From a virus, in UHGV virus genome UHGV-0243446: a DNA stretch of 11,725 nucleotides. The stretch is one strand, 5' to 3'. A program made the translations under genes and the position numbers. Of the stretch, positions 6,518 through 8,394 are shown piece after piece. The notes under the pieces were generated by a model. That model was given only the letters and a program-made list of their open reading frames with translations, was not told where the DNA came from and did no database searches. Numbering within the stretch: position 1 is the first letter of the stretch; every line of letters begins with the position of its first letter.

Positions 6518-6817
6518 TCAAATAAGTGGTTTGCTGCCTAATTTCATTTTCTGGCGACCAACACAAGTCACACCCATTTCACTGCGTGGCTTGCTGTAGT
6601 AAATACGGTTCTGTTTACGCTCGACTTCTTCTGCCTTCTTGCAGCGAAGGCTTCCGAGTGATGCTGCTTTGTCTGCTCTGACGCAACCAGAGAGCTTTAG
6701 CGCAATTTTTCGCGCCAGTCGCTGTTCTTGCATTGCCTGTTCACGTTGAGCCTGTCTGCGTGCTCTGCGGCGATTTCTGGTGTTATCGTCAGCCAGATAT
6801 GTAATGACTACTGCCAT
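6518..6817 (-). CDS. N: N-family transcription antitermination protein
   Basis: ATG at 6817 with GGAGG RBS 5 nt upstream. N-terminal arginine-rich motif (TRNRRRARRQAQREQ). C-terminal region (RKQNRIYYSKPRSEMGVTCVGRQKMKLGSKPLI) resembles lambda N. nutL lies upstream in the leader. Confidence 0.85.
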   Translation of the reverse strand: MAVVITYLADDNTRNRRRARRQAQREQAMQEQRLARKIALKLSGCVRADKAASLGSLRCKKAEEVERKQNRIYYSKPRSEMGVTCVGRQKMKLGSKPLI

Positions 6818-6843
6818 GTTGACCTCCGATGATTGACTTTGGC

Positions 6844-6902
6844 GGTGACGCGCCGGGTGCTTATCTTCCGGTTGCTGTCGTGCAGCTGCACTTCACGTCA
6901 CC
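6844..6902 (-). other. Structured N leader: long inverted repeat (GGTGACG...CGTCACC) enclosing the 12-bp palindrome GTGCAGCTGCAC
   Basis: Seen directly in the sequence between nutL and the N RBS. By analogy with the RNase III-processed hairpin in the lambda N leader. Confidence 0.4.
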
Positions 6903-6923
6903 CCAAAGCCAACTACTCTTTGG

Positions 6924-6966
6924 TTCCCGCATTTCGGCGGGACAATCCCATCAATGTTAAAGAGCC
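6924..6966 (-). promoter_or_regulatory. nutL: boxA (GCTCTTTAACA) plus boxB hairpin (TCCCGCCGAAATGCGGGA)
   Basis: On the minus strand the boxB 19-mer is identical to the one downstream of cro (nutR). The boxA-like CGCTCTT core precedes it. Located about 40 nt downstream of the predicted PL start. Confidence 0.75.
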
Positions 6967-7004
6967 TGCCAATCTGTTCCGTTTGGCTTCCAGCGTCCTG
7001 CTGA

Positions 7005-7100
7005 TGGCTAAAGAATACTGTAGGTATTTTATTGTGTAAATACCCAAGGTATTTATTTTTGGTGAAATAATGATAAGCAAATGAATACAAAGGATATTTA
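7005..7100 (-). promoter_or_regulatory. PL promoter with OL operators
   Basis: Minus-strand -35 TTTACA (7040-7035), 17-bp spacer, -10 TATTCT (7017-7012). 17-bp dyad sites GAATACTGTAGGTATTT (7013-7029), AAATACCCAAGGTATTT (7038-7054) and a weaker GAATACAAAGGATATTT (7083-7099). Same half-site family as the OR sites. Confidence 0.6.
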
Positions 7101-7185
7101 TTTTTTTCGGTGTCTGCTTGTTCAGTGCTTTTTATGCGGGATATGTGAAGTGGATCCCGATAGCTATTGCTGCCGGGATTATGGG

Positions 7186-7575
7186 TTAGTCAGCGAAGGT
7201 TAAGACGAGAATTACCTTAATGATGTCTGCTACAACAGACACGGCCATAGATAAACCAAAGACAATCCAAGCCATAGAGATGTCTTCACTACCATCGTAT
7301 AGAGTTCCGTAATCACTGGTGTAAGGCGTAAATGTCGCGCCTTGATACAACAGGTATAAGCTTGAACCATAGAGGATAAATGCAGATATCCCTTGTATTG
7401 CTATGATCACCAGAATCATGAAACGAGCTGATCTATGCGCCCAAGCCTGGCTTATTTTTTCTGATAGAGATTTCGCAATAAAAGCATGCGCTAAGCCGTA
7501 AATTGTCGAGATTTCCAACATCCCCAAAAAGCTTGCTATAGCGGTTCCAACCATAATCGCCCCTTGCGTGATCAA
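7186..7575 (-). CDS. Small polytopic membrane protein (3 predicted TM helices) in the rex/immunity-region position
   Basis: Track ORF begins with TTG overlapping the cI stop. An ATG about 7554 with AAGGGG RBS is likely the real start (about 122 aa). Three hydrophobic segments of about 22-25 residues. Downstream of cI on the same strand, as rexAB is in lambda. Confidence 0.6.
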   Translation of the reverse strand: MITQGAIMVGTAIASFLGMLEISTIYGLAHAFIAKSLSEKISQAWAHRSARFMILVIIAIQGISAFILYGSSLYLLYQGATFTPYTSDYGTLYDGSEDISMAWIVFGLSMAVSVVADIIKVILVLTFAD

Positions 7576-8288
7576 ACCAGCCTTAGTTTTGTCTCAATTG
7601 CAACGCCTATAATCTTGCAGTTTCCATTGATTGGCACGAGAGGCCATGCAGGATTAAGTCCCTTGAGGTATTTATTTCCGCCGTCGATTATCAGCTTCTT
7701 GAATGTTGCTTCGTTAGAGTCAGAAAGTTTTGCTATGACCAAGCTGCCGTTGATCGCCTCCCTTCCGGTATCGAAAAGAACGAATGTTCCCTCTGGAATG
7801 CTTAACCCAACCGGTGCCGTCATTGAATCACCTTCCACTTTAAGCCAGAACGCATTACCTTGAATATGCGCGTCAGACTCAAGCCAAACATCTATGTCTT
7901 TAATGGTGTATGGTTCGCATGCTTCACACCACGAGCCAGCCTGGATACTGCTTAACACCGGATACCTCTTTCCTGCTCTGTATTCCCCTGCATACCTTAC
8001 GTTGGCATCGCTCTTAAGGCTTTCTGCCTGTTCTGCAACCTTGGCAGCAATTGACTGGCTAAAATCAGCAATTGAGACTTGCAACAGTCGTGCAAAACCA
8101 GATGCAACCTCAACGTTTAGCGCGTTTCTGCCATTAAGATAATGCCCTACCGCTCCTTGGGTGATACCCAGTTCATCAGCGATTGAGTATTGGGTTATTC
8201 CCAATTCTTTCTTTTTTGACTCATACAAAGCCTTAAGCCGCTTAGCGTCTTCGAGCTGTTCTGTCGTCAGTGATTTTTTATTTTCCAT
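7572..8288 (-). CDS. cI: cI-type phage repressor (HTH N-domain plus S24 LexA-like autoprotease C-domain)
   Basis: N-terminus MENKKSLTTEQLEDAKRLKALYESKKKELGITQYSIADELG resembles lambda cI. Ala-Gly cleavage site in IQAGSW. Catalytic Ser in GDSM and Lys in FKKL. Start codon abuts the operator region. Confidence 0.92.
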   Translation of the reverse strand: MENKKSLTTEQLEDAKRLKALYESKKKELGITQYSIADELGITQGAVGHYLNGRNALNVEVASGFARLLQVSIADFSQSIAAKVAEQAESLKSDANVRYAGEYRAGKRYPVLSSIQAGSWCEACEPYTIKDIDVWLESDAHIQGNAFWLKVEGDSMTAPVGLSIPEGTFVLFDTGREAINGSLVIAKLSDSNEATFKKLIIDGGNKYLKGLNPAWPLVPINGNCKIIGVAIETKLRLV

Positions 8289-8394
8289 AGCTTAATTCTA
8301 ATAGCTAAGGTACTTAAACTAAAAATACCCTGAGTATTGATTGCTTTGAATACCTGTAGTATTCTTTGTTCATGGTTAATAACGGAGAGTGCAT
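8289..8394. promoter_or_regulatory. OR operator region with divergent PRM and PR promoters
   Basis: Dyad sites AATACCCTGAGTATT (8324-8338) and GAATACCTGTAGTATTC (8348-8364); possible weak third site about 8299-8316. PR: -35 TTGATT (8337-8342), 17-bp spacer, -10 TATTCT (8360-8365). PRM on the minus strand: -10 TAGAAT (8300-8295), weak -35 TTTAGT (8323-8318), start at or near the cI AUG (leaderless). Confidence 0.65.

Follow-up and report, generated by a model that had tools for sequence, protein, structure and literature searches.

hkaS, an annotated but uncharacterised gene for a predicted small inner-membrane protein in the cI-to-OL slot of HK620-type lambdoid immunity modules

What is the gene that fills the interval from repressor gene to left operators in lambdoid phages of the HK620 immunity type, and what might it do for the lysogen? 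In lambda this cI-to-OL slot holds rexAB, the oldest known phage-exclusion system. Extra proteins are encoded on the PRM transcript of many lambdoid phages, with exclusion of other phages as the commonest benefit, and rexAB (lambda), stk (933W) and hex (434) are all placed in this way (PMC3564112). The locus treated here lies in a stretch of viral DNA of 11,725 nucleotides (UHGV virus genome UHGV-0243446), the whole of which is called the window in what follows. A sequence-only reading of the window had pointed to an open reading frame in the rex slot as the best candidate for an undescribed defence or membrane-depolarising module, reasoning that the slot is a classic site for lysogen-expressed exclusion cargo in lambdoid phages. 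That view of the slot is borne out by the literature (PMC3564112) and by our own slot survey, given below.

The window is a lambdoid early region. Leftward from its centre come cI, hkaS, the operators with PL (7012-7098) and N; rightward from cI come cro, cII, an O-like initiator and a DnaB-type helicase. The features that surround the slot, in order of position, are as follows.

6518-6817, minus strand: N
7013-7029: OL1, from the HK620 annotation mapped onto the window; conserved in all lineages
7038-7054: OL2, from the HK620 annotation mapped onto the window; conserved in all lineages
-35 at 7040 and -10 ending at 7012, minus strand: PL, from a promoter scan; directed leftward, away from hkaS
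7082..7098, no strand assigned: operator-like site AATACAAAGGATATT, with the pattern AATAC-N5-GTATT as in OL1/OL2/OR1/OR2
7154..7179, minus strand: predicted stem-loop, 7 nt 3' of the hkaS stop, with no U-tract (RNA fold)
7186..7554, minus strand: hkaS coding sequence, 122 aa plus the TAA stop at 7186-7188 (open reading frame, homologue starts and PHROG match)
7555..7571, minus strand: cI-hkaS spacer of 17 nt, containing the Shine-Dalgarno sequence AAGGGG at 7565-7560 (direct reading)
7572..8288, minus strand: cI repressor, 238 aa, with HTH_3 and Peptidase_S24 domains (Pfam); 100% identical to the cI of mEpX2
8298..8363, no strand assigned: OR3-OR2-OR1 with PRM/PR, from the HK620 annotation mapped onto the window

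With cI, N and PL at these positions, the frame does lie in the cI-to-OL/PL interval that corresponds to the rex slot of lambda, as had been proposed.

The longest frame over the gene runs from 7186 to 7575 on the minus strand and gives 129 aa from a TTG start. We rejected the TTG at 7575 as a mechanical extension and preferred the ATG at 7554-7552, which follows the Shine-Dalgarno sequence at a 5-nt spacing and yields 122 aa. This is the likely start: it was also picked in the GenBank annotations of HK620 and mEpX2, and it is backed by the match to PHROG 6534, which begins at the ATG-encoded residue of the long form (residues 8-129 aligned to profile positions 1-122 of 122, E = 4.7e-78).

The module is not undescribed, as the sequence-only reading had it, since the gene is hkaS of phage HK620, annotated since 2001 and equivalent to PHROG 6534. 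The HK620 GenBank record of 2001 gives the gene name hkaS and the product "unknown" (AAK28867.1 / NP_112052); PHROG 6534 is annotated as unknown function, and other phage records and RefSeq label the product a hypothetical protein. The statement that the protein could be placed in no family held for Pfam, NCBIfam and PADLOC and failed for PHROG. The protein encoded in the window is 96-99% identical to HK620 hkaS and mEpX2_043 (96% to HK620 HkaS), and its exact sequence is found as WP_113623221.1, a hypothetical protein of Escherichia albertii, so that the window almost certainly comes from a prophage of that species. Orthologues of equal length and in the same position occur in HK620, mEpX2, HK630, HK140, HF4s, phi296/phi367 and two Stx2c phages, and the cI proteins of these phages are at least 99% identical to that of the window. 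Over 6800-8300 the window shares 98.5-99.1% identity with the immunity regions of mEpX2, HF4s, phi296/phi367, HZ41, HK620, HK630, HK140, 611R6 and two Stx2c phages. No functional study of hkaS, and no transcriptome for this type of prophage, was found in the literature covered, which did not include the E. coli prophage defence screen of Brenes & Laub 2025. hkaS is a known annotation, uncharacterised, and belongs to a tiny, unstudied family.

How the gene is likely to be expressed can be read from its surroundings. hkaS lies on the strand of cI, downstream of cI and upstream of OL, with no intervening terminator found, and a scan of the 17-nt cI-hkaS spacer returned neither a promoter-like nor a terminator-like site. 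The sole transcription sources identified into cI-hkaS are PRM and, inside cII, PRE. Since PL is directed away and no internal promoter was found, hkaS should be readable only from PRM in the lysogen or from PRE during establishment. From this geometry we infer that hkaS is co-transcribed with cI and expressed in the lysogen. It would be the last gene of a cI-hkaS transcript ending at the stem-loop 3' of its stop codon, and HkaS would be made whenever repressor is made.

The stem-loop at 7154-7179 could mark the 3' end of the immunity transcript or stabilise it. The 71-nt segment that encloses it has a folding energy of -14.1 kcal/mol (z = -2.9), and a stem-loop shortly 3' of the hkaS stop is predicted in all four divergent lineages compared. 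Its sequence is nearly equal in the window and locus L009 and different in loci L003 and L012; the z score lies between -2.9 and -4.1 in three lineages and is weak in L012 (-1.5). The spacer from hkaS to OL measures 109 nt and is non-conserved just 3' of hkaS; an antisense frame of 40 aa (7081-7203, plus strand) was rejected because it sits in this non-conserved spacer. An Rfam search of the whole window gave no match.

The left bound of the slot is probably the operator-like site at 7082-7098, which lies within a block conserved across four divergent lineages and would be the true OL3. The OL3 annotated in HK620 maps to 7060-7076 of the window and is off-pattern with respect to OL1/OL2/OR1/OR2, and the annotated tIMM maps to 7073-7103, 3' of hkaS. 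Both features were probably mis-assigned in the HK620 GenBank record. The stem-loop is a better candidate for the transcript end than the HK620 tIMM because the latter overlaps the conserved operator-like site.

hkaS is a real, maintained gene under purifying selection. Compared with an 82%-identical Hafnia-type allele, its dN/dS (omega) is about 0.14; this allele belongs to a cluster named Hafnia paralvei in NCBI, and the locus compared, L009, is a metagenome contig. Between the window and L009, dS is 0.737 in hkaS and 0.739 in cI, an equality that shows the two genes to share one history, and dN is 0.100 in hkaS versus 0.022 in cI. The hkaS frame is intact in 80 of 80 IMG/VR loci with close alleles. 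The full cI-hkaS block is present in 79 of these, the remaining locus being cut by a contig end, and in these 79 full-length loci indels between the start of cI and the stop of hkaS are confined to the 17-nt spacer.

A non-functional leftover frame, merely carried along with the immunity region, is effectively refuted by these selection data, and we give it almost no credence. The gene has no known function, its nonsynonymous polymorphism is elevated (see below) and the copy in the window has a private charged substitution, A14E, in its first transmembrane segment (TM1), all of which a leftover would explain; against this stand the omega of 0.14 over a dS of 0.74, the 80 of 80 loci with neither stop nor frameshift, 54 invariant columns in five lineages and a confident fold prediction from six sequences only.

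The distribution of hkaS follows that of its repressor. HkaS sits directly 3' of a cI of 238-240 aa in every homologue, down to 53% identity, and hkaS was found only beside HK620-type cI. The position 3' of HK620-type cI and 5' of OL/PL is kept in loci L003-L012, in 79 of 79 uncut IMG/VR loci and in 146 E. coli genomes; the gap between cI and hkaS is 18-20 nt in the loci examined and 17 nt in the window. The 146 genomes are 2.7% of the 5,426 complete E. coli genomes searched. Every one of the 146 with any part of the OL-hkaS-cI block had the block complete, and neither gene was found separately. Their sources include human, pig, poultry, chicken, wastewater, vegetables and frog, among others.

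Outside the block the homologue loci differ: their flanking N genes are 18-36% identical and their replication genes belong to different modules. Compared with the divergent modules, the window shows DNA similarity that starts in OR, continues through cI and hkaS and ends at PL/nutL, and the three operator sites and PL are conserved in four of four lineages. Because hkaS is flanked by the repressor gene and by the left operators which the repressor must recognise, a recombination event that parted them would break immunity. Physical entrapment thus explains the strict linkage most simply, with no need of functional coupling.

Within this shared history the two proteins change at different rates. 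Identity to the homologues is 82, 59 and 53% for HkaS versus 96, 86 and 84% for cI, and in amino-acid sequence HkaS evolves at about four times the rate of cI. In a set of 59 ungapped IMG/VR alleles, 31 codons of hkaS are polymorphic and 16 of them are nonsynonymous, versus 4 of 29 in cI (the remaining 15 and 25 are synonymous-only; Fisher p = 0.0025), and there are 18 protein alleles of HkaS versus 5 of cI. The replacements in HkaS are mostly conservative swaps (I/V, F/L, S/T, A/S) in TM1 and the first half of TM2, a pattern that relaxed constraint on lipid-facing residues explains no worse than an arms race does.

The contents of the slot in other lambdoid phages are given here with the identity of each cI to that of the window.

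Serratia OS31: cI 71% identical; slot empty
434 and Sf101: cI 51-52%; hex, encoding a 134-aa protein with a signal peptide
SEN22: cI 45%; slot empty
lambda: cI 43%; rexA-rexB
imm21 (DE3): cI 43%; slot empty
TL-2011c: cI 42%; methyltransferase and restriction endonuclease
Stx2 phage 1717 / VT2-Sakai type: cI 34%; unrelated 173-aa frame

The restriction-modification system of TL-2011c, an Stx-type phage, lies directly downstream of cI in the rex slot (locus L016, 2888-4678). The slot gene of Stx2 phage 1717 (locus L018, 3641-4162) encodes 173 aa between cI and N, belongs to no Pfam family and is unrelated to HkaS. The hex product as now annotated (2409-2813 both in L014, lambda imm434, and in L015, Sf101) begins with a typical signal peptide, MIRIAALLSILLTTSANSEC. 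The published model for Hex of 434 is a block of RecA-stimulated repressor cleavage, and lower spontaneous induction has been reported (PMC3564112); a signal peptide is hard to square with such a block in the cytoplasm.

HkaS might likewise act on the choice between lysis and lysogeny, either by stabilising lysogeny as reported for 434 Hex or by dampening FtsH so that CII persists. We consider this quite improbable. FtsH, the proposed target, is an inner-membrane protease, and hkaS would by its geometry be read also from PRE, which CII activates, so that a positive feedback would arise. The strict inheritance of hkaS together with one repressor type, unbroken in 146 genomes and 79 viral contigs, also speaks for such a role, but this linkage is accounted for by entrapment between cI and OL, and the Serratia phage with a 71%-identical cI, imm21 and SEN22 do without a slot gene. 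The slot gene hex is reported to reduce spontaneous induction (PMC3564112), but HkaS is unrelated to Hex and offers RecA or cI almost no cytoplasmic surface to contact.

That last property comes from the predicted structure of the protein. Kyte-Doolittle windows give three hydrophobic segments in HkaS, at about 1-27, 45-70 and 94-121. An AlphaFold2 model built from a six-sequence alignment (mean pLDDT 90.8, pTM 0.77) has helices at 2-29, 31-38 (short and amphipathic), 41-74 and 89-121, and a beta-hairpin at about 78-86. The sequence-only reading had described a protein of about 122 aa with three hydrophobic helices, and with this the ATG start, the hydropathy windows and the model agree; structure prediction, which it had recommended, modelled three long helices for the monomer at that same pLDDT.

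The loop at 28-44 is basic (K28, K33, R41, R44) and the loop at 71-93 is acidic and rich in Tyr and Gly. From this charge distribution, by the positive-inside rule alone, we infer a topology with the N-terminus out, loop 1 in, loop 2 out and the C-terminus in. HkaS is with confidence predicted to be a 3-TM protein of the inner membrane that exposes about 19 residues to the cytoplasm and a small cap, highly conserved, to the periplasm. The 17-residue basic amphipathic loop would be cytoplasmic and the Tyr/Gly-rich beta-hairpin periplasmic.

The 54 columns invariant across five lineages mark out three parts of the protein: the putative cytoplasmic amphipathic loop (KIxQxWxHxxARF); the end of TM2 with the conserved Tyr/Gly-rich, predicted periplasmic hairpin (SxYLLYQGATFxxYxSxYGxxYxG, S65-G88); and the C-terminal half of TM3 (DIxKxIxVLTFAD), which includes an invariant D110/K113 pair. 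The C-terminus ends LTFAD, with no basic tail, and TM1 is conserved on one side. The loop at 71-96, TFTPYTSDYGTLYDGSED (window about 7267-7344), was matched in the profile search described below to nine repeats in an RHS/YD-repeat protein of 5949 aa. We rejected homology to that protein, the match being confined to this loop and a motif-level resemblance; it hints at a beta-hairpin of YD type presented by two membrane helices.

At residue 14 (window 7513-7515, TM1) the window copy has Glu. This charged substitution, A14E, is private to the window copy and distinguishes it from HK620 hkaS: the position is Ala or Val in fourteen other individually examined alleles, codon 14 is invariant among the 59 IMG/VR alleles, and the variant was absent from the complete E. 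coli genomes. It may mark a weakened allele of hkaS, or a neutral private change in E. albertii.

Searches for relatives gave little beyond the family itself. Pfam has no HkaS family; its sole match, Cation_ATPase_C (E = 0.011), scored 16 bits, below the cut-off of 27.3, and was treated as hydrophobic bias. HkaS had no match in NCBIfam and none to the superinfection-exclusion families of Pfam and PHROG (Imm, SieB and similar), PHROG 6534 being the only informative PHROG; among the defence models of PADLOC-DB v2, 0 families match at E <= 10. A word-indexed search of 5.8 billion proteins found 11 HkaS clusters, all from Enterobacterales, with a lowest identity of 53% and with E. coli, Hafnia and Salmonella as the named members. 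Profile searching with HMMER, run exhaustively over 1.84 billion cluster representatives, added one further full-length cluster and one fragment. No relative was found among the 185,579 species-representative genomes of GTDB or in a sequence search of PDB, and Foldseek of the HkaS model against PDB and BFVD gave no match at E <= 0.001. In pairwise hhalign comparisons the probability was 0.2% with lambda RexB, 0.05% with 434 Hex and below 0.2% with the slot frame of Stx2 phage 1717. The sequence-only reading had named remote homology to a housekeeping or characterised exclusion protein as evidence that would tell against its proposal; no such homologue appeared in Pfam, PHROG, PADLOC or hhalign. 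By sequence comparison HkaS is an extreme orphan family.

Two kinds of known membrane protein nevertheless resemble HkaS in outline. Lambda RexB (PF15968) shares with it the slot, the strand and the place of last gene before OL, and both would be small polytopic inner-membrane proteins presumably read from PRM. RexB has 144 aa and four transmembrane helices, versus 122 aa and three predicted helices in HkaS. The two have no sequence or profile similarity (Pfam E <= 1, hhalign as above), although lambda RexB itself is recovered by this Pfam library at 8.5e-92. RexB is the membrane component of RexAB abortive infection; HkaS has no RexA partner gene, the 17 nt to cI and the 109 nt to OL holding no second gene. 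Class I holins such as lambda S105 have about 100-120 aa and three transmembrane helices with the N-out/C-in topology predicted for HkaS, an architecture that lambda S itself has. Unlike them, HkaS has neither a holin profile match nor a charged C-terminal tail, and hkaS lies in the immunity region and not in a lysis cassette.

Such likenesses would suit a stand-alone abortive-infection effector, in which HkaS forms a latent oligomeric pore, RexB-like or holin-like, that is opened by the membrane disturbance of a superinfecting phage and depolarises or lyses the cell before progeny are made. HkaS sits in the same slot as rexAB, its three helices have the predicted N-out/C-in topology of class I holins, and invariant residues inside the membrane, D110/K113 and Q54, could form the lining of a channel. 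We judge it unlikely, given that similarity to RexB, a match to any holin family and the charged tail typical of holins were all absent, that there is no RexA-like sensor gene and that some 19 cytoplasmic residues provide no obvious trigger domain.

434 Hex, a heterologous-exclusion protein from the same slot, belongs to the next-nearest E. coli repressor type (434 cI 52% identical). It is known to be encoded on the PRM transcript (PMC3564112), which for HkaS is suggested by geometry. The two proteins are unrelated in sequence, and the re-annotated Hex has an N-terminal signal peptide, not three transmembrane helices.

Our main reading takes hkaS to be an accessory ('moron') gene within the HK620-type immunity module. 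Its product may be an exclusion protein of the inner membrane that is expressed in the lysogen and acts from the periplasmic side, to which we assign a probability of roughly 0.35. HkaS would keep superinfecting phages out at the inner membrane, where it would block the entry of their genomes by obstructing either the incoming genome-delivery conduit or a host inner-membrane component that the conduit uses. The proposal is made because HkaS has nearly no predicted cytoplasmic mass, because its best-conserved surface would be periplasmic, and because of the exclusion record of the slot. With so few cytoplasmic residues, it seems poorly suited to sensing a cytoplasmic event, and partners in the membrane or on its periplasmic side are feasible.

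The mode would be akin to that of P22 SieA, HK97 gp15 or T4 Imm, and unlike a Rex-like system with a cytoplasmic trigger. Like SieA, gp15 and Imm are small inner-membrane exclusion proteins encoded by prophages or phages. By analogy, HkaS resembles SieA, gp15 and Imm as a small predicted inner-membrane protein and in the exclusion mode proposed for it; it differs in having no homology to them in Pfam and PHROG scans. The SieA, gp15 and Imm genes lie outside the cI slot in their genomes, and entry blockers such as SieA and gp15 are not known to be encoded in it, which counts against the entry-block reading. The lack of homology to any known exclusion or defence protein (Pfam, PHROG, PADLOC, hhalign) counts against exclusion in general. 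P22 SieA, which is expressed from the prophage, acts on the periplasmic side to block the delivery of DNA (PMC10883804). A superinfection-exclusion protein tuned to one ejection apparatus would be a poor fit for HkaS, because the module occurs in podovirus, siphovirus and Stx-phage virion types.

Possible, though doubtful, is that HkaS is the founder of a new single-gene membrane defence family that has no cytoplasmic sensor and is unrelated in mechanism and fold to Rex, SieA, Imm and the catalogued systems. An incoming phage would here be detected or obstructed through the invariant Tyr/Gly hairpin, periplasmic and YD-repeat-like, and the intramembrane Asp-Lys pair.

The benefit to the lysogen may also lie outside defence, if HkaS is a lysogenic-conversion factor that alters host fitness by modulating a transporter, a sensor kinase or an envelope stress pathway of the host. 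Small inner-membrane proteins often regulate larger membrane complexes, as do SgrT, MgrB and AcrZ. The conserved amphipathic helix, predicted to be cytoplasmic, and the one-sided conservation of TM1 suggest helix-helix docking, and hkaS prophages reside in E. coli from many sources. This role is nonetheless not a likely one: the characterised genes of the cI-OL slot are nearly all anti-phage (PMC3564112), and HkaS is confined to one immunity type and absent from the GTDB species representatives.

In kind hkaS is an ordinary gene, an accessory membrane gene (by prediction) in the rex position, presumably expressed in the lysogen; in sequence it is a new family. A different cargo for each immunity type seems to fill the cI-to-OL slot, and HkaS is the cargo of a type present in about 2.7% of complete E. 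coli genomes and found also in Stx-converting phages, E. albertii, Salmonella and a Hafnia-annotated variant. It is encoded by a single small gene in genetically tractable phages, including the model phage HK620. If hkaS is a defence gene, HkaS would be a minimal membrane defence of a new sort; failing that, hkaS would still be a clean case of a gene 'trapped' in an immunity module by repressor-operator matching.

Just left of the immunity module, the nutL-N leader (window 6842-6923) is a second variable spot, with replacements or insertions, relative to the window, of about 90 bp in 611R6 and about 340 bp in Stx2_EH1904. These insertions were rejected as slot cargo on account of their location in the leader, and the extra 'hypothetical proteins' near hkaS in some records were set aside as gene-caller artefacts in the PL leader.
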